A stretch of 64,000 bases of DNA, taken from Escherichia phage Phi1. Below are positions 48,411 to 64,000 of this stretch, piece by piece (the first letter of the stretch is position 1; every line of letters begins with the position of its first letter). The notes beneath the pieces were generated by a model. It worked only from the letters and a program-made list of their open reading frames with translations. It was not told the DNA's origin and made no database searches. The DNA is taken from sequence record EF437941; one strand, written 5' to 3'. A program made the translations under genes and the position numbers.

Positions 48411-48894
48411 ATTTTGCTAAATCATTGCAATATTTTAGTGCCTTAGTTTGAAATTCTGCGCTGTTAAGTTCTTCATAACGGTCATAATCACCGTTTAATG
48501 CTGCCTTTCTTGCTTCTTGCTCTATCTGCATGTCAGACATGATAATACAGCGATCCCGCGCTTTCATCTTCTCAAGTTGTATAGACTCTTCTTTCTGCTT
48601 GCGCAATTCTTCTTGACGCTTCTTTTCTTCTTGTGCTTTCTCTTCCCGCGCTTCTTTGATTGCATCCTTGAACATCTGCGTTTGTGGTGCTAAACCAACT
48701 TTAACGCGATCCACGTCTCGACGTTCCATTTTAGAAATAAAGCATGATTCGATCTGATCATCACTTGCATATGCTGCTTTACATTCACGAAGCAAGAAAA
48801 CCGGATCTGATTTAGCATTCATCATAGCTTCCATGTTGGCACAACCAGTAAGCATGAATGCAGCCGCAAGACCAATCAGTTTAATCATTTTCAT
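48409..48894 (-). CDS. putative lipoprotein (signal peptide plus lipobox LTGC)
   Basis: N-terminus MKMIKLIGLAAAFMLTGC; Lys/Glu-rich coiled-coil-like middle; start overlaps the stop of the upstream ADP-ribosyltransferase gene. Confidence 0.6.
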   Translation of the reverse strand: MKMIKLIGLAAAFMLTGCANMEAMMNAKSDPVFLLRECKAAYASDDQIESCFISKMERRDVDRVKVGLAPQTQMFKDAIKEAREEKAQEEKKRQEELRKQKEESIQLEKMKARDRCIIMSDMQIEQEARKAALNGDYDRYEELNSAEFQTKALKYCNDLAK

Positions 48895-49715
48895 TTAGTC
48901 ACCTCACCGAAAATTGTAAATTGTCTACGATTCTCATCGCCGAAAGATTCTACTACGTCGTTTACCTTGACGCAAGTCCCGCGCGGTAAAATTACTTCAC
49001 ATTCGCAAGGGTTCCATGCAATTGACCCAACAACAAAACCTTTATGATCTTTTACGTCAATTACCCATGATACATTACAAGAATGTTGCATCTTTCCGGT
49101 CATGGATTCATATCGATTCTCACAATAAAGGCTAGTGCTATTTGAAAGCCAGCCTCCAAAGATGATCGGTGTCATGCTGGTCGATACAAAGTTTTTAAAG
49201 GTAAACTCCTTATCTTCAATAATACGCTCTATTGTCTGAATGTCAAGATGTTGACCGCGATAAAGAGTACCGTTTAACTTTTCGGTTTTATCCATGACAC
49301 AATCCATCAAATCAACAATCTCTGATATCTCATCGGTCATGTCTTCTTCCCCTAAGAGAGCACCATTTACCCATTCGTATTGTTCAGACACATAATCACA
49401 GATTGCATTATATTCTGCTGGGGTTATGTTGTTATGTTTGTAATGTTTGAATACATTATCTCCAAAGTCTTCGGAGTGTACTTCATACATCACATTAATG
49501 ATTTTCTTGACAAATCCATAATCTTGTGTCTCACGCTCAAGGAAGCGGATAACCTTCACATAATCATCAAAGTTAATCTGATCGCTGATCATCTCAGTGA
49601 TCATGTAACCATTAATCCCCTCAATGTCATATGTTTCGATGTAATTATCCATACGTTCCATCATTGATTCGCGTGATTCTTCTGAAAGACGAAAATCCTG
49701 TAATTTCTTGAACAT
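48891..49715 (-). CDS. ADP-ribosyltransferase, Alt-like paralogue (274 aa)
   Basis: R-S-E motifs LYRGQH / FKNFVSTSMTPIIFGGW / ECEVILPRG parallel to those of Alt; RBS GGAGG. Confidence 0.7.
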   Translation of the reverse strand: MFKKLQDFRLSEESRESMMERMDNYIETYDIEGINGYMITEMISDQINFDDYVKVIRFLERETQDYGFVKKIINVMYEVHSEDFGDNVFKHYKHNNITPAEYNAICDYVSEQYEWVNGALLGEEDMTDEISEIVDLMDCVMDKTEKLNGTLYRGQHLDIQTIERIIEDKEFTFKNFVSTSMTPIIFGGWLSNSTSLYCENRYESMTGKMQHSCNVSWVIDVKDHKGFVVGSIAWNPCECEVILPRGTCVKVNDVVESFGDENRRQFTIFGEVTK

Positions 49716-49793: not shown

Positions 49794-51845
49794 TTACATT
49801 TTAAATTTATCTGGCATTGCGTCTACAGATACCAGATCAGCGATAAGCTGACGTAGAGTTGCCTTATCTGCTTTCTTACGTTCGGTTTTAGCTTCGCTAA
49901 TGAAGCTGGAGAAAGACAGGTCAGAAGCAGGTTTAACAACACCTTCACGGATGAATGCATCACCGTCCGCGATCATCTCACCAGATTCTTGTAATGCTGC
50001 CAGTTCACTTTTGTTCATAATATGTGCCTCAATGTAATAAGTTTCTTGTGAATCCGTAGATGCCGTAGCACGAGTTACCGTATCAAAGGATAACACAACA
50101 CCGCGAGGAAGTAAAATCTCGCATTCTTTGTAAGCAAATGCTTTGTTACCTACTGGCAATACAGGGATGTTTTCCGCGCCAGCAATGGAGAAAGCAACAT
50201 TAGCGCCACCTTCACCGCGAGATCCAGCCATAGAATCTACCCCAGCAACGGCACTAGCCACGTTTGCATTCCAGCCGCCAAAAATGTTAGGTGCAAGGGA
50301 AGTGCTCACGTAGTTTTTAAAGTAAAACGCTTTTTGCTTACGTGCAGTTTCCCACATTTGAGACCGGAAGTCCATACCACGATACAGAATAGTACCCGGA
50401 TCAAGTTTAACGCCATAGTTAGAGAAGGCATTATCCAGTGCATCGCACATCTTGACCAATTCTTCTGGATCTGCGATTCCCTCAAACTCTTCCAGCTTGC
50501 GATCAGTTAGGAAGTTGTTCATATTGATGTATGCTGCATCGGCATATTCGCTCAACACAAAACCTTCCGCGCCCGGCAGATCAAGATCAATATCTGCCAT
50601 CATTTCACCCATGTTGCTAGCAATTGCTTCAAACATACCGGACGCAACATTACGAAGGGCATCGGTTTTAATCTGGGTGATATGACTACGCAGCATTTCA
50701 GCTTTTACATCTGCTGGCATAGACTGGTCTACTCGATCCATTGCCAGGGCGGTGATCTTGTTTTCGAATACTTCCTCGCTCATGATTTCTTTTAAGCGTT
50801 TGATTGATGCTGCGATAACTTCCGCAGACAACGGATCATATTGATCCTGAACTTTTACCAGTTCGCTTACTGCGTATTTTGCATCGGCTTCGCTTTCAAA
50901 AATAGTACGCATGAAACCATAGCGAGTGATAATATCACTTGTCCAGTCATTCAGAGAACGGGCGGTTGAACGTTCTAAGGCTTGACGGTCAATCAGAGTA
51001 TTAAACTGTTTCTTAGGTTCTGCTTCGGTGATATCTTCTTCCGGTTTAAGATTAATTTTTTCTGGATGATTCACATAGTCGCTGTTATAGGTCGCTTGAG
51101 TTTTCAGCATTTCTTCTTTAGTCAAACGAGATTTAGCCGCTACGCGTTGTTCCGCTTCCGCGTTTCGTTCTTCTTCTGACACAAGACTAGCCGCATATGC
51201 CTCATCTTTAGTCAGAGATTCACCAGTAGCCTTAGATACCCAGCGATCACCTAAATCACTTTCTACTTTAGTGAACAAGGATTCATCAAGTTTAATCCCT
51301 TTAATCTTATCAATCGCCATCCCGCGACGCTTGACAACAACTAAAGCGATCTTTTTGCTGGTCATTACTTCCTGCTGGAATACTTCAAACTTCGGTGTAC
51401 GACGCACCAAACGCTCTATAACGCGCTTAACCAGTTCGGTCTTACCTTTCATGCGGGATACGTTAAAACGGAACATAACAGCGTCTAATTGCGCTTTACG
51501 GGCTGTTTCCATAACCACATCAAACGCACTTGCCATAACTGCAATCGGGTTATCGCCTAGACCATTTTTAAGCTGTACAATACGACCGCTTTTGTTCATT
51601 TCGCACAGTACAACATGTGCGGTCTTGTCACCCATACGAATGATTTTAGGTGTTTTGTTGGTGAAGTTACAAAGACGGACAATCACATCTTTATCGCGTG
51701 TCTGTACTGCAAAAAGCTGTTTAGGATTCTGCTTCGGCTTTAAGCACTGTACCGGAGCAATACTGCCAAAGTTTTCTTCCTCTTCCGTCAACAGCCATTT
51801 CTCGAAAGATTCAATCATTAGATCGTCGATTTCTAAGTTAAACAT
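49794..51845 (-). CDS. alt: ADP-ribosyltransferase Alt
   Basis: 683 aa (T4 Alt 682 aa); LYRGMD / FKNYVSTSLAPNIFGGW / ECEILLPRG; position after gene 54. Confidence 0.85.
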   Translation of the reverse strand: MFNLEIDDLMIESFEKWLLTEEEENFGSIAPVQCLKPKQNPKQLFAVQTRDKDVIVRLCNFTNKTPKIIRMGDKTAHVVLCEMNKSGRIVQLKNGLGDNPIAVMASAFDVVMETARKAQLDAVMFRFNVSRMKGKTELVKRVIERLVRRTPKFEVFQQEVMTSKKIALVVVKRRGMAIDKIKGIKLDESLFTKVESDLGDRWVSKATGESLTKDEAYAASLVSEEERNAEAEQRVAAKSRLTKEEMLKTQATYNSDYVNHPEKINLKPEEDITEAEPKKQFNTLIDRQALERSTARSLNDWTSDIITRYGFMRTIFESEADAKYAVSELVKVQDQYDPLSAEVIAASIKRLKEIMSEEVFENKITALAMDRVDQSMPADVKAEMLRSHITQIKTDALRNVASGMFEAIASNMGEMMADIDLDLPGAEGFVLSEYADAAYINMNNFLTDRKLEEFEGIADPEELVKMCDALDNAFSNYGVKLDPGTILYRGMDFRSQMWETARKQKAFYFKNYVSTSLAPNIFGGWNANVASAVAGVDSMAGSRGEGGANVAFSIAGAENIPVLPVGNKAFAYKECEILLPRGVVLSFDTVTRATASTDSQETYYIEAHIMNKSELAALQESGEMIADGDAFIREGVVKPASDLSFSSFISEAKTERKKADKATLRQLIADLVSVDAMPDKFKM

Positions 51846-52447: not shown

Positions 52448-52966
52448 TTAGTTATTTTTTAATTGCTCATCTTGCAATAGGGAAATCACATGCTGGCGAT
52501 GTTCTTCCGATTGAGGGACACCGAAAAAGTTTGTTTTGTAGAAATACTCTAATCGGTCTTCTCGTGTGCTCTCTTCCATCATGATCGCGGGTAGTCCGAG
52601 ATTTCGGAAACGTCGCTTTTCTGCTGGCGTAAAATCACTGTAATACAGCATAGAATCATCGTTACCAGCAATGCTAAACTCATCATTCATGAAGGAGAAT
52701 ATTGCGTTTAAACGCTGTTTACCGTCCACGATTTCGATCTCATAGCGAGAGCCATCATCAATCTTAGCCATTGCGATAGCACCAACCGGAAAATCATTAA
52801 TCAGGTTTTCGATAAACATACGTTTGTTTTCGGTGTCCCATACCAAAGGACGCTGATAATCTGGGTTCATGTTGATATAGCCATCTTCTAACCACGCCTC
52901 ATAAACAGAGATGACAAAGTTTTTAGTATTGGTATAGTAACGGCGTTTAGGCGTTAAACGGTTCAT
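52448..52966 (-). CDS. DUF262 / ParB-like nuclease-NTPase domain protein
   Basis: Start set to ATG at 52966 (RBS AGGAGA); PDYQRPLVW ... FIENLINDFPVGAI ... IVDGKQRLNAI matches the DUF262 signature (pFQR..W / DGQQR). Confidence 0.65.
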   Translation of the reverse strand: MNRLTPKRRYYTNTKNFVISVYEAWLEDGYINMNPDYQRPLVWDTENKRMFIENLINDFPVGAIAMAKIDDGSRYEIEIVDGKQRLNAIFSFMNDEFSIAGNDDSMLYYSDFTPAEKRRFRNLGLPAIMMEESTREDRLEYFYKTNFFGVPQSEEHRQHVISLLQDEQLKNN

Positions 52967-52967
52967 G

Positions 52968-53300
52968 TTATAGTCTCCTGAATGGATCATCACGTAAATC
53001 AATATCTTTTAAGAACTCATCCCATGAATGGCGGATATTGTTCTTAATTCTCCAGATAAGCGCAGGGATTGAACGCTCTCCCATCTGGAAGTAAGGATCA
53101 TATGATCCGTATGCCCAATATGCTACTACAATTCCACAATCAGCGCAATAATATTCTATTTCACTTGCTGGCGACCAAAGTCCATCAATATGATCGGTGA
53201 TCCTGCTTTCGATGTTATGGCTATGGCAATCAGGGCAACGGATGCAATGACCTTGTTTATCGTAATTTGACGTTAGCGAATACTTAAACAATCTCATCAT
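52968..53300 (-). CDS. Zn-ribbon protein (110 aa)
   Basis: CIRCPDCHSH ... YCADCG Cys/His clusters; translationally coupled to neighbours. Confidence 0.5.
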   Translation of the reverse strand: MMRLFKYSLTSNYDKQGHCIRCPDCHSHNIESRITDHIDGLWSPASEIEYYCADCGIVVAYWAYGSYDPYFQMGERSIPALIWRIKNNIRHSWDEFLKDIDLRDDPFRRL

Positions 53301-59264: not shown

Positions 59265-59576
59265 TTAAAGTTTTTCCATGATAACGGTCATAATTACATC
59301 TTCTGCGCGAGCGGTCAGATTATCAGCGTCAGCATGTGGGCGGTTGGTTGTTACAGAGATAACACCGTTGCGCACTGGTTTGATATTGATATCAAGATGA
59401 TCCGCGAAACGTTCGCCAGTTACAGAATGAATTTTGGTGTTAAATTCTTTTGCCAGTGCCTTGCGAACTTCACGAATCAGGGTAGCGTTTTTCAGTTGGT
59501 TCTCCGCGCTCATGGTCTTCTGGGTGTTCATGGTTCCGTCGAAGTCAATCATTGGCAGCGTTACGATGTATTTCAT
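59265..59576 (-). CDS. hypothetical early protein (103 aa)
   Basis: ATG with conserved leader and RBS. Confidence 0.5.
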   Translation of the reverse strand: MKYIVTLPMIDFDGTMNTQKTMSAENQLKNATLIREVRKALAKEFNTKIHSVTGERFADHLDINIKPVRNGVISVTTNRPHADADNLTARAEDVIMTVIMEKL

Positions 59577-59663
59577 TTTTGATTCTCCGTTTAAGAAAGT
59601 GTGTTTCGTTTTGATGTGTGTATTATAAGGGGATCACCGATCCCCTGTCAACAACTTTTTGAA
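59577..59663 (-). promoter_or_regulatory. early promoter cassette 11 (GATC palindrome)
   Basis: TTGACA, spacer GGGGATCGGTGATCCCC, conserved leader. Confidence 0.6.
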
Positions 59664-60140
59664 TTATTTTTCTTGATGCTCGCGCTCGTACTTTTCGAAA
59701 TAAAATTCTACTGGCTGATCGTGGATTGAAAGCAAGCCAAAGCGTTTAGCCGCTCGCAATCCCATATTGCGCTGAATGTACTTCTGGAAGTTCTCGCGTA
59801 TACACTTACGCCAGGATTCTAAGCCCATACAGCTTTTATAAAGATTGCATTGCACACACGCCGGATTCATGTTATCAAGTATATCATGCTCCGGTTTATG
59901 CATTCCTACAACCTTATACTTCCACGATCCATCATCATTACGAGCAATTCGTCCATTTTCATCATAGACTACCTTTGAGCGTCGTAATACTGGTTTGATG
60001 TGGTCTGCGTGCCAGCGATCCCCTAGTTCCTCGCCACAATAGGCACAACGTCCACCATATTTCATTTTCAGGATCTGGCGTTGCTCTTTCTTTGACAATT
60101 TTTTAGGTTTAGGGGCTTTCGCCCCTTCATTATCACACAT
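59664..60140 (-). CDS. HNH endonuclease
   Basis: CAYCGEELGDRWHADHIKP plus NMNPACVQCNLYK (HNH motif with paired Cys clusters); start overlaps the ligase gene end. Confidence 0.75.
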   Translation of the reverse strand: MCDNEGAKAPKPKKLSKKEQRQILKMKYGGRCAYCGEELGDRWHADHIKPVLRRSKVVYDENGRIARNDDGSWKYKVVGMHKPEHDILDNMNPACVQCNLYKSCMGLESWRKCIRENFQKYIQRNMGLRAAKRFGLLSIHDQPVEFYFEKYEREHQEK

Positions 60141-61629
60141 CGAATACCTCTTTTACTGTATTTGCAGTGGTCTTGTCGTAGCGAATACGTTTGATGATCG
60201 GGAGAAATAAAGAGAACTCCGGTTCATCTTCTTTACGTGATTTGCTTCGAATGTACCCGTTGCATGTCATCTCAATGACTTTTCCGACCAGGTTATGCCG
60301 TTCAGCCCATAACATTTCTCGGTCAAGATCATTTCGACGATCGAACGGAATTACACGTTCAATACCATCATCACATTTTTCGGTTGTGGTGTCAGTCAAT
60401 CCCGATCCGGTGTTAGTCATCATTCGTCCGCACGCACTACGGACAGTAAAACCGCCCACCTTATTAGGATCTTTACTATGCGGATATACATCAACAATTT
60501 CCGCGTCGAAGTCAATCACTTCTTTAAATTTAACCTGATCTTTACTGCGACGATCTTCAAATACACCATGTAAATTTTTAAGGATAATACCTTCTAATCC
60601 CATGTTTACATAGCGATGATATACTTCGCGAGCTTCATCGAGATTGTTAACTACGGTATTTTCGATTATCTGAACACGAGGATCGTTAAGTTCTTCAACA
60701 ATCTGTTTTAGTTCCTCAAATCGATCTTTATACTGCTTCGTTGCTTTCTCGTTACCGTAGTACACATCACGGTCGATAACATCCCAGACAGTGTAAACAA
60801 TACATTGGGCTTCTTCTTTTGGAATAGTTCCTTTCAGTGATTTGTTGAGGATACCATTTCCGGTCTGACGATCTGCAACAACGGATTCTTTCACTGCTTC
60901 CGTTACTGGCGTTAATGGCATTTCCTCTTCTTCAAATATCCATGACAGAGTACCATCATAAACGCTCTCAACGAAGTTCTGCGCTGGTGTTTGCGAAAGG
61001 GTAGGCATATATACCAATTCGCCATCTAGAACAATTCCACGGCCTCGTAAACGCTCTAAAACCGCAAACAAATCATCAAGCCCTTGATAGGTATTACCTG
61101 AGCGGGTATAGATTGCTAATGTTTCCCCGTCAATATCAGCCATCCCACGAGCGCCATCGCTTTTAAGTTGTGCATACGCCGGATACTTGATATTAGCAAT
61201 AGTCTTGTCAGAACATGACGATGCAAGGTGGCACGGCTGCTGGGGGATCAGTTTCTTCCATACCTTGTTTGCAGTGGTAGCGGAACAACCGCATTCCAGG
61301 TCACGATTCAGGACCATCATTGCAACTTTAGCATCATCCTCTGACAAGCAAGTCAGAGTATCGGTAACTAGCTGTAATGCTGCATTACCAGTTACTTGAC
61401 GCGTGGCAAGTTTATTTTTAAAGACCTGTAATGCACCGGATAAAGACAATACAGACGAATAACGCGATGGTTTATCGTATTTCTTTACGCCAAACGTAAC
61501 CTGTTTGCAATATGCCAGATAAAAGCATTCTTTCAGCGTTTCATTGCTCGCGGATTCTTTCAGAATCTTTTCTTTCAGCGATGTTTTGTCTGTTGCTGCA
61601 AGCTGATTAATGATATTAAGAATTGACAT
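60133..61629 (-). CDS. 30: ATP-dependent DNA ligase gp30
   Basis: Start set to ATG at 61629 (RBS GAGGTGA); adenylation motif KSDGAR; overall resemblance to T4 ligase. Confidence 0.9.
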   Translation of the reverse strand: MSILNIINQLAATDKTSLKEKILKESASNETLKECFYLAYCKQVTFGVKKYDKPSRYSSVLSLSGALQVFKNKLATRQVTGNAALQLVTDTLTCLSEDDAKVAMMVLNRDLECGCSATTANKVWKKLIPQQPCHLASSCSDKTIANIKYPAYAQLKSDGARGMADIDGETLAIYTRSGNTYQGLDDLFAVLERLRGRGIVLDGELVYMPTLSQTPAQNFVESVYDGTLSWIFEEEEMPLTPVTEAVKESVVADRQTGNGILNKSLKGTIPKEEAQCIVYTVWDVIDRDVYYGNEKATKQYKDRFEELKQIVEELNDPRVQIIENTVVNNLDEAREVYHRYVNMGLEGIILKNLHGVFEDRRSKDQVKFKEVIDFDAEIVDVYPHSKDPNKVGGFTVRSACGRMMTNTGSGLTDTTTEKCDDGIERVIPFDRRNDLDREMLWAERHNLVGKVIEMTCNGYIRSKSRKEDEPEFSLFLPIIKRIRYDKTTANTVKEVFDV

Positions 61630-62095
61630 TTTCACCTCGTTTTGTTAAACGTTCACGAATATCATTGAGGATACTACAAAATTCCGATTCAGTCAATATA
61701 GTCTTTAACGGATCAGTTCCACCTATACTATGACGCAATTTCTTATTTCCGGTAGCGAGTAATGCTTTACAAAATTCTGGGTTATTCCGTGCCATCGTAA
61801 CAAATGCCAGATGTACCAGTCTGTAATAATGCTCACTCATTCGATGAATCGGGCGACCCTGAAAATATAACATGTGATTCTCTATCTTTTCGGTCCTTCC
61901 GGTTCTTTTTGCTTTGCCACCGTGCATCAAAAAGATTTCTCTTTGTCTCTGAGGGTTCTTAAATCTTAGCCCCTGTAAAAATCCTTCTGTGCTGTTAATA
62001 TCGCAACCAAATAGACGGAATGGTCTTTTATTGAAATTACTCAATTCACCCGATGGATAAGGTCCACCCGCATAGATATCAATTTCAGAAGTCAT
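61616..62095 (-). CDS. possible NADAR/YbiA-like (DUF1768) protein
   Basis: Loose matches to YbiA-like motifs: GELSNF, STEGFLQGLRF, ALLATGNKKL; 159 aa; overlaps the ligase start by 14 nt. Confidence 0.45.
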   Translation of the reverse strand: MTSEIDIYAGGPYPSGELSNFNKRPFRLFGCDINSTEGFLQGLRFKNPQRQREIFLMHGGKAKRTGRTEKIENHMLYFQGRPIHRMSEHYYRLVHLAFVTMARNNPEFCKALLATGNKKLRHSIGGTDPLKTILTESEFCSILNDIRERLTKRGENVNS

Positions 62096-62249
62096 TGAAA
62101 CTAATCTCGCTAATCAGAGAGAACGGATCATAATCGTCACTAGGAATATCGATAGTAATCGAGTGAGGGTTTACCCATACACCAAACTGGTCTTCTTCGG
62201 TGAATACTTCGGTATGGATTTCGTGGATGTTTACATTCATAGTTTTCAT
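62085..62249 (-). CDS. hypothetical protein (54 aa)
   Basis: ATG with RBS AAGGAA; end overlaps the NADAR-like gene start; below the ORF-track cut-off. Confidence 0.35.
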   Translation of the reverse strand: MKTMNVNIHEIHTEVFTEEDQFGVWVNPHSITIDIPSDDYDPFSLISEISFNDF

Positions 62250-62332
62250 AATAAAATTCCTTAATAATCAATAACTTACAAAATCATATAGCCAAAATAT
62301 AGGCGGGATTATTACCCGCCGTTTAAAAATCA

Positions 62333-62656
62333 TTAACCGTAAACTACCACAATATTCTGTTTGTGCGTTACAGTCCATTTCAGGTCGATCTCTTCTTCCT
62401 TCTTAACGCCGTTAATAACGTCTGGATGAGGAACTTTATTCATCTTTCCATGTGGCAGTAAAACAGTTTTACCCAGCAATTCTTTATCTACCGTCTCGCC
62501 AATATCAATAATCTTACCTACCAGCGGAATCTCACCCATAGTGCGCTTTTGCTCAATAATGATCCCCATAGAGCTTTTTACTTCGGTCCCTGCGCTTTCT
62601 GCTTTAGCTTCGATAATTACATAATCACCAAGTGCTTTAGGAGTTTTAACGGTCAT
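62333..62656 (-). CDS. 31: GroES-like co-chaperonin gp31
   Basis: 107 aa; GDYVII and NKVPHP segments resemble T4 gp31; position between ligase and cd. Confidence 0.7.
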   Translation of the reverse strand: MTVKTPKALGDYVIIEAKAESAGTEVKSSMGIIIEQKRTMGEIPLVGKIIDIGETVDKELLGKTVLLPHGKMNKVPHPDVINGVKKEEEIDLKWTVTHKQNIVVVYG

Positions 62657-62697
62657 AATTTTATTACCTCTTCAAATCAATACAGTTTAATGATGAA

Positions 62698-63018
62698 TTA
62701 TTTATAAATTTCGACGATCTGCGCTGGAGTCAGCCCGTCTACATTAATCAGACTATCAAGCCCAAAACTACGGAAACCTTCAACTGCAATTTCATATACT
62801 GGCAAAGATGTTTCTGATTCTTTACGCGGTTTTTCGACATTAGGAACTAACCACTTTTCGTATGTTTCGAAAGGCATCAGTGCCGGATCTCGCGTGGCGA
62901 TCATCTCGCGGACAGTACCATCTTTCTTAGTAAACTGCAAAGAGTGAGTACCGACCGAAAACATTTTCTTTAGTGCTTCACGAAGTGCGATATTATCAAT
63001 TTGTTCAGTCATTATCAA
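62698..63018 (-). CDS. hypothetical protein (106 aa)
   Basis: ORF overlapping the cd 3' end; no recognised motif. Confidence 0.45.
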   Translation of the reverse strand: MIMTEQIDNIALREALKKMFSVGTHSLQFTKKDGTVREMIATRDPALMPFETYEKWLVPNVEKPRKESETSLPVYEIAVEGFRSFGLDSLINVDGLTPAQIVEIYK

Positions 63019-63511
63019 TACCCTTCAAATCAGTCAATAATTCTTTTGGAATACGAGTGATCGTAATATCTGCATTGTTCAGAATATCAGCCCAATCACG
63101 CCCACCATTTCGATCATATGTGTCGCAATAATATAGATGTTTAATTCCACTGTTTGCAATTGCTTTAGCGCAATCTGGACATGGTGAAGCAGTACACCAC
63201 ATACTAGCGCCTTCAATCGATACACCGCTACGGGCAGCAAACAAAATAGCATTTAATTCAGCGTGGATCTCGTTTTTCTGTGACCATGCACTATGCTCTG
63301 GTCGTTTTTCTGGGATCATTTTGCCTTCATCATCCAGCCAACCGCTTTTATGTGCATGACAGCTACAATTTACTTGCCCTGCTGGAGTGCCGTTAAATCC
63401 AGTAGAAATAATTCGCCCGTCTTTTTCGATTAGTGCTCCTACCTTCCACGAAACACATTTAGAGTTCTTTGCGATTAGATAGGCGATCTGCATGTAAGTT
63501 TGTGACAACAT
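63005..63511 (-). CDS. cd: dCMP deaminase
   Basis: Zn-binding deaminase motifs HAELNAI and PCPDCAKAI; 168 aa. Confidence 0.9.
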   Translation of the reverse strand: MLSQTYMQIAYLIAKNSKCVSWKVGALIEKDGRIISTGFNGTPAGQVNCSCHAHKSGWLDDEGKMIPEKRPEHSAWSQKNEIHAELNAILFAARSGVSIEGASMWCTASPCPDCAKAIANSGIKHLYYCDTYDRNGGRDWADILNNADITITRIPKELLTDLKGIDND

Positions 63512-63532
63512 AATATAATCCTCACATATTAA

Positions 63533-63736
63533 TTAACCGTATACGCGAAAGTATTCTACTGATCCGTCGCTATACTGTTTTACATTGAATGTATTCACAC
63601 CATGATTATTTCTCATGATGACATATACACTGCGACGTTCATCGCTAAACGGCATAACTGGCGCTGGTTCAATATCAACACTAAAACCACGTTTAGCAAG
63701 TGCTTCGCCTAATTGCTTGAGTTTATCGGTAAACAT
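63533..63736 (-). CDS. hypothetical protein (67 aa)
   Basis: ATG overlapping the stop of the upstream pseT. Confidence 0.45.
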   Translation of the reverse strand: MFTDKLKQLGEALAKRGFSVDIEPAPVMPFSDERRSVYVIMRNNHGVNTFNVKQYSDGSVEYFRVYG

Positions 63737-64000
63737 TAAAAGTCTCCGTAGTTAACCTGAAAACATTCTACACCAATTGAGCGGTACATGTCAACCACTT
63801 GATCACGGTCATCTACTGCCAAAACAACATGATAACGCGGTGCAATTTCAGAGAAGAAAATCTCTTTCTTCACTTCATGATCAGGACGACGATCATTAGT
63901 TTCACGTTGAAAGTGATCACTAGGTTCAATACCCTGTTCACGCAACCATTGCAGAGTATCTTCTTCGCAAACATCCTCACGTCCTGAGCATGTAATGATA
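63736..64000 (-). CDS. pseT: polynucleotide kinase/phosphatase PseT (partial; 3' end only, start beyond window)
   Basis: C-terminus ...EIFFSEIAPRYHVVLAVDDRDQVVDMYRSIGVECFQVNYGDF resembles the T4 Pnk phosphatase-domain C-terminus; frame open to the window edge. Confidence 0.75.
   Translation of the reverse strand, partial: IITCSGREDVCEEDTLQWLREQGIEPSDHFQRETNDRRPDHEVKKEIFFSEIAPRYHVVLAVDDRDQVVDMYRSIGVECFQVNYGDF

Follow-up and report, generated by a model that had tools for sequence, protein, structure and literature searches.

The 30.3 locus and its NADAR-family protein

A 64,000-nucleotide (nt) stretch of Escherichia phage Phi1 DNA (sequence record EF437941; hereafter the window, to which all positions refer, with gene coordinates including the stop codon) carries a tightly packed string of four genes, 31.-1, 30.3, 30 (DNA ligase) and an HNH endonuclease open reading frame (ORF), which overlap head to tail by 11, 14 and 8 nt (Table 1). 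We focus on gene 30.3, a 159-residue ORF that a sequence-only reading had put forward as a possible NADAR/YbiA-like gene overlapping the ligase start, and which lies on the minus strand (that reading gave no strand). With a probability of roughly 0.8, we take it to be orthologous to T4 gene 30.3 (also named adfN), as the RB49-type form of that gene found in Krischvirus, and to specify a minimal, single-domain NADAR-fold ADP-ribosylglycohydrolase that would counter DarT1-type toxins. The peptide strings on which the proposal had leaned, GELSNF, STEGFLQGLRF and ALLATGNKKL, are in place at residues 16-21, 35-45 and 111-120, and the reported ligase overlap is likewise real, amounting to 14 nt when counted from the ligase ATG at 61629.

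The 901 bases around the ORF match Escherichia phage JEP8 at 99.8% identity and a further 57 records, Krischvirus RB49 among them, at 98-99%, and the protein is 100% identical to the RB49 (AJ550428) coding sequence annotated “gp30.3, unknown”. The Pfam family PF08010 (Phage_30_3) matches at 132.5 bits (cut-off 36, E=1.2e-38) over positions 2-138 of its 138-position model; tblastn recovered homologues from phages of Escherichia, Klebsiella, Acinetobacter, Aeromonas, Vibrio and further hosts, 1508 records in all; and an exhaustive phmmer search yielded 973 cluster representatives among 1.84 billion at E<=0.001. Taken together, these three results establish that this is not a chance ORF.

The proposed NADAR/YbiA-like domain held up at the level of family profiles but not in a single-sequence search, where Pfam PF08719 (NADAR) scored 15.5 bits, below its gathering threshold of 35.1 (E 0.021). 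That score alone neither supports nor refutes the NADAR call, and profile and fold tests were therefore used; the protein is covered instead by the sister model PF08010. Among 13 aligned relatives, 10 matched PF08719 at E<=1 (best E 1.1e-6), and a family profile searched against 177,635 Protein Data Bank (PDB) sequences returned Escherichia coli YbiA as its sole match, at a marginal E of 0.012. Alignment of the family alignment (A1) to YbiA with hhalign gave a probability of 91.8% (E 7.5e-7, 121 columns) and paired GELSNF with GDFSNF, STEGFLQGLRF with TSEHYFQAQKF and ALLATGNKKL with LLLATAPAKL; the strings previously described as loose matches are therefore true NADAR motifs, and the relation to the NADAR superfamily at profile level includes the SNF and SxE(x6)K motifs. 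Structure prediction agreed, as the AlphaFold2 model built from a 13-sequence alignment (mean predicted local distance difference test score, pLDDT, 93.7; predicted template modelling score 0.88) retrieved from viral models, by Foldseek, gp30.3-like phage proteins (template modelling score 0.87-0.93) followed by many proteins named NADAR, so that both a domain signal and a predicted YbiA/NADAR three-dimensional fold are present. A DltA-type ligase (PDB 7vhv_D) that appeared in a single-sequence phmmer search (E 3.8e-4) received no support from the profile and fold searches and was rejected; for a protein of this composition, E-values in the range of ~3.8e-4 are unreliable.

The putative active site was compared across 169 aligned gp30.3-family domains, the sample behind all residue counts given here. 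E37, which aligns to the Glu of YbiA TSEHYFQAQKF, corresponds to a catalytic Glu kept in 162 of these domains. H122 lies in the string LRHSIG, aligned to T4 LKHSI, and a His occupies this position in 161 domains. This last-strand His is characteristic of phage NADARs, whereas the YbiA family has Glu and DarG1 antitoxins have Asp at the equivalent place (PMC11125620, PMC11543638). The C-terminal helix is also intact, with block pLDDT values of 90-97 up to residue 150 and an alignment that reaches the last residue of T4 gp30.3.

These features set the protein apart from the better-known cellular NADARs. Relative to the NADARs of DarG1 (G. lovleyi, PDB 8bat; E. coli C7, Schuller et al. 2023, PMC11543638), it lacks the N-terminal extension (137 residues align, out of 159 in the protein and 219 in 8bat), and it carries His122 in place of the last-strand Asp that marks the BC4488 family of DarG1 antitoxins, to which it thus does not belong. 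DarG1 is encoded next to a DarT1 gene; 30.3 is an orphan phage-borne copy flanked by 31.-1 and DNA ligase, with no ADP-ribosyltransferase adjacent. Nor does it have the last-strand Glu of E. coli YbiA (PDB 2b3w; VEH motif), hhalign setting LR-HS against LVEHT, and YbiA, unlike 30.3, belongs to a dinG/ybiB operon under LexA control, its annotation being that of an N-glycosidase of riboflavin metabolism.

Table 1 Features of the 30.3 locus and related context in the EF437941 window
Feature	Position	Strand	Evidence
adfN / gene 30.3 orthologue, single-domain phage NADAR, 159 aa	61616..62095	-	ATG-to-TAA ORF
E37, catalytic Glu, codon GAA (T4 E36; E. coli C7 NADAR E88)	61985..61987	-	sequence; invariant in A1
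R44, codon AGA, at the phosphate-binding Lys position (T4 K43; E. coli C7 NADAR K95)	61964..61966	-	sequence; alignment to T4
H122, codon CAT, phage-type (gp30.3-type) NADAR His	61730..61732	-	sequence; invariant in A1
C-terminal helix, model residues 136-157	61619..61690	-	AlphaFold2 model; lost in DarTG1-sensitive RB69 allele
Overlap of 14 nt, 30.3 end / ligase gene 30 ATG (ATGTCAATTCTTAA)	61616..61629	-	sequence; RB49 and vB_Eco_SAP annotation
Shine-Dalgarno GAGGT of ligase, inside 30.3 coding sequence	61634..61638	-	sequence; ribosome-binding site annotated in AJ550428
Gene 30, ATP-dependent DNA ligase, 498 aa from ATG 61629	60133..61629	-	Pfam DNA_ligase_A_M E 4.7e-22
Gene 31.-1, 54-aa ORF	62085..62249	-	annotated in RB49
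HNH endonuclease ORF, 158 aa	59664..60140	-	Pfam HNH E 5e-6
Terminator-like GC hairpin and T-run, between gene 31 and 31.-1	62302..62320	-	consensus match only; site number not above shuffled expectation
Alt-like ADP-ribosyltransferase, 683 aa (context)	49794..51845	-	Pfam ADPrib_exo_Tox E 2.3e-9, 37.3 bits vs cut-off 23.4
Second ADP-ribosyltransferase-domain protein, 274 aa (context)	48891..49715	-	Pfam ADPrib_exo_Tox E 4.3e-16, 59.3 bits

Relation to T4 AdfN and a probable role against DarT1-type toxins

The closest characterised relative is T4 gp30.3, with which the protein aligns collinearly by BLASTP at E 2e-30 (residues 3-150 against T4 residues 2-152). Both are single-domain NADAR cores of the PF08010 family with the catalytic Glu, the phage-type His and the C-terminal helix, and each is encoded at the corresponding place, with gene 31/cd on one side and ligase gene 30 on the other. 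Unlike the T4 protein, the one described here is 7 residues longer at its C-terminus and has R44 where T4 has K43; its gene abuts and overlaps the ligase gene, whereas the T4 gene is separated from 30 by the unrelated genes 30.1 and 30.2, so that the overlap is attributed to loss of 30.1 and 30.2 from the ancestral gene order. The host phage moreover is a Krischvirus, outside the Tevenvirinae, and has no nested 30.3' gene.

Proteins of the gp30.3 family have been recognised bioinformatically as “phage NADARs” (PMC11543638, PMC11125620), and in vitro T4 gp30.3 hydrolyses ADP-ribose linked to guanine in DNA, though not that linked to thymine (PMC11125620, PMC12945103). It was renamed AdfN (anti-DarT factor NADAR) by Johannesman et al. 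(Nat Commun 2025, PMC11825919), who showed it to be a DNA ADP-ribosylglycohydrolase with specificity for guanine, necessary for overcoming DarTG1 and also sufficient to do so: deletion of adfN renders T4 and T2 sensitive to this toxin-antitoxin defence, expression of adfN rescues RB69, the substitutions E36A and K43A weaken the T4 protein, and a natural RB69 allele without the last 15 residues is defective. Two further phage-borne orphan NADARs, AdfN-Bas32 (T5-like) and AdfN-Bas60 (Vequintavirinae), are likewise specific for guanine adducts and counter DarTG1 (PMC11825919), although they come from other, independently acquired NADAR clades than gp30.3 and neutralise DarT1 even without infection.

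By analogy with T4 AdfN, the adfN product of this phage would be made during infection and would release ADP-ribose from guanine in phage DNA by hydrolysing its N-glycosidic link to the N2 amino group, thereby reversing the modification laid down by a host DarT1-type toxin and allowing the phage to replicate in DarTG1-carrying cells; the activity itself, its guanine specificity and its counter-defence role in this phage may all be expected to parallel those of T4. The earlier suggestion of a counter-defence function against DNA ADP-ribosylating toxins thus finds backing in the characterised orthologue. The function is already known, gp30.3 being annotated in RB49 (AJ550428), its clade recognised as NADARs and its anti-DarTG1 role published in 2024-2025, and our results do not change the understanding of NADARs or of DarTG; a reader working from sequence alone had nonetheless hit upon a genuine counter-defence gene of phages, one published only recently. 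The practical consequence is that the AdfN annotation extends to ~58 Krischvirus genomes, in which the records examined call the gene product hypothetical, leave it unnamed or list gp30.3 with function “unknown”.

Several points weigh against this assignment. Identity to T4 AdfN is only 38%, PF08719 falls short of its threshold for the single sequence, and the basic residue seven positions after the Glu is present but is Arg (R44) rather than Lys. An engineered K95R change at the equivalent position of the E. coli C7 DarG1 NADAR left the enzyme active in vitro but unable to rescue DarT1 toxicity (PMC11543638), and the in vivo efficiency of the RB49-type enzyme could therefore be lower, or its target different. 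Full activity of T4 AdfN needs an unidentified T-even factor (PMC11825919); tblastn found no homologue in the window of 30.1 or 30.2, the neighbours of T4 AdfN, and none of 30.3', 30.4-30.9 or rIII either, leaving no candidate helper factor. The published DarTG1 phage panel (T2, T4, T6, RB69 and Bas35-47) included no Krischvirus (PMC11825919), and a search for literature on Krischvirus or RB49 against DarT/DarTG found nothing relevant.

The Arg at position 44 raises the possibility of an AdfN-family NADAR that has been retuned or weakened, being ineffective against E. coli C7-type DarT1, having a different guanine ADP-ribosyltransferase or ADP-ribosylated RNA as its target, or simply of low efficiency. 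We consider this unlikely. In its favour, Arg is the minority residue at the phosphate-binding position (11 of the 169 domains, ~6%, against 151 with Lys), the DarG1 K95R protein uncouples hydrolysis in vitro from rescue in vivo, and NADARs also strip guanine-linked ADP-ribose from RNA (PMC12945103). Yet Arg is fixed in this lineage, in RB49, in the 99%-identity cluster P0001 and in the 69%-identical metagenomic relative P0002, and it turns up again in separate members of the family with Glu and His both retained (P0018, P0035, P0095, P0097, P0142 and P0150), a distribution which suggests that the natural Lys-to-Arg change is tolerated under selection. Arg also retains the positive charge for phosphate contact, and the active site is otherwise intact, as is the fold. 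On similar grounds (the lineage-fixed Arg, the uncoupling by K95R in the DarG1 NADAR and the lack of detected 30.1/30.2 homologues in the window), the RB49-type enzyme could conceivably have another target range than T4 AdfN, or depend differently on a T-even helper factor, a difference we rate as rather improbable. If it were real, the natural Lys/Arg pair would help to dissect what makes a NADAR protective in vivo. The variant bears in addition on host-range prediction in phage therapy, for RB49-like phages used against DarTG1-positive E. coli.

Readings in which DNA-borne ADP-ribose is not the target, or not the whole purpose, fare worse. A YbiA-like N-glycosidase activity directed at small molecules (reactive intermediates of the riboflavin pathway, free ADP-ribose or metabolites derived from nicotinamide adenine dinucleotide, NAD) is highly improbable given that the last-strand Glu of the YbiA family is replaced by the phage-type His, that both a DNA substrate and a phenotype have been demonstrated for the T4 orthologue, and that no riboflavin or NAD-salvage genes were found adjoining 30.3. 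The claim that the phage encodes two ADP-ribosyltransferases was borne out, both ORFs scoring above the Pfam ADPrib_exo_Tox threshold, and their presence ~10 kb away on the same strand invites the idea that 30.3 reverses or limits the phage's own (Alt-like) ADP-ribosylation of host proteins, or collateral modification of phage molecules. These ORFs share no operon with 30.3, however, and nothing links them to it functionally; in the papers cited here, the adducts on which NADARs are characterised are all on bases of nucleic acids (guanine, for some also cytosine) and not on proteins (PMC11125620, PMC11543638, PMC12945103); and the gp30.3 family spans many phage genera across its 1508 records, with DarTG1 fully explaining the T4 phenotype. 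The case against this very unlikely explanation is argued only indirectly, because no information on NADARs acting on protein ADP-ribosylation was found in Schuller et al. (PMC11543638). Least credible of all, to the point of being extremely improbable, is a repair module in which 30.3 removes ADP-ribose or a damaged base and the co-translated ligase seals the resulting nick or gap. Such a module would fit the way in which 30.3 overlaps the start of ligase and contains its Shine-Dalgarno sequence, but NADAR chemistry restores intact guanine without a backbone break (PMC11543638), the separation of 30.3 from 30 by 30.1 and 30.2 in T4 marks the adjacency here as a loss of intervening ORFs, and head-to-tail overlaps are usual throughout this gene string. 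The position next to ligase is inherited synteny with tight translational coupling and no mechanistic requirement, ligation being unneeded because the DNA backbone is left intact.

Gene layout around 30.3 and architecture of the family

The TAA of 30.3 (61616-61618) falls within the ligase gene. The longest ligase ORF begins with a GTG at 61635, but the true start is almost certainly the ATG at 61629, because GAGGT precedes it and the same start is annotated in RB49 (AJ550428) and vB_Eco_SAP; the resulting 14-nt overlap suggests translational coupling between 30.3 and ligase. The ligase itself is 40.6% identical to T4 gp30 (E 2e-112). At its other end, 30.3 shares 11 nt of its start with the stop end of gene 31.-1, and the two are translationally coupled through this overlap; 31.-1 has no Pfam match, and none of the T4 genes searched matches at 62085..62249. 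An overlap of 8 nt joins the ligase stop to the ATG of the HNH ORF, which has no counterpart at that place in T4 and probably represents a homing-type insertion immediately downstream of gene 30.

Comparison with T4 shows how little of the surrounding interval is shared. When 23 T4 genes from the pseT-to-alt.1 interval were searched by tblastn, only 30, 30.3, 31.1, cd and pseT were detected in the window, and gp30.3 is thus among the few conserved accessory genes of the region; gene 31, present according to the RB49 annotation, is too divergent for detection by tblastn. The small 30.x and cd.x ORFs of T4 are replaced by unrelated small ORFs (60133..64000 compared with T4 125000-135000). The nested alternative-frame gene 30.3' of T4 (L002:3403-3630) has no equivalent in 61616..62095, where we found neither a same-strand internal ORF of at least 40 codons nor a tblastn match, and is therefore not a conserved feature of the locus.

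A scan of 59500-63600 for promoters and terminators, which did not extend to T4-type middle and late promoters, returned no more sites than shuffled sequence and identified no 30.3-specific promoter. The hairpin at 62302-62320 is a possible upstream boundary of the 31.-1/30.3/30/HNH string. Directly downstream of the HNH gene, at 59622..59651 on the minus strand, lies a perfect 12/12 sigma-70 consensus (TTGACA, 18 nt, TATAAT), which on this match probably serves the small ORFs of the following block as a strong early promoter.

Elsewhere in the gp30.3 family, longer architectures are common, as nearly half of the 150 best representatives exceed 200 residues (examples are found among P0024, P0039, P0058, P0061, P0019, P0117, P0069, P0135 and P0021). 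P0024 and P0039 have an N-terminal region of ~300 residues without a Pfam match that appears to be multi-pass, hydrophobic and membrane-like; P0058 joins the gp30.3-family domain to a calcineurin-like phosphoesterase and P0061 joins it to BspA-type leucine-rich repeats; and several members are tandem duplications in which the second copy is without the catalytic Glu.

One further observation concerns a distant part of the window, at 52448..53002 on the minus strand, where a 184-residue ORF has, of the GmrSD-type restriction endonucleases, the N-terminal domain alone (Pfam GmrSD_N/DUF262, E 5e-20), an odd thing for a lytic phage to carry as a stand-alone domain.
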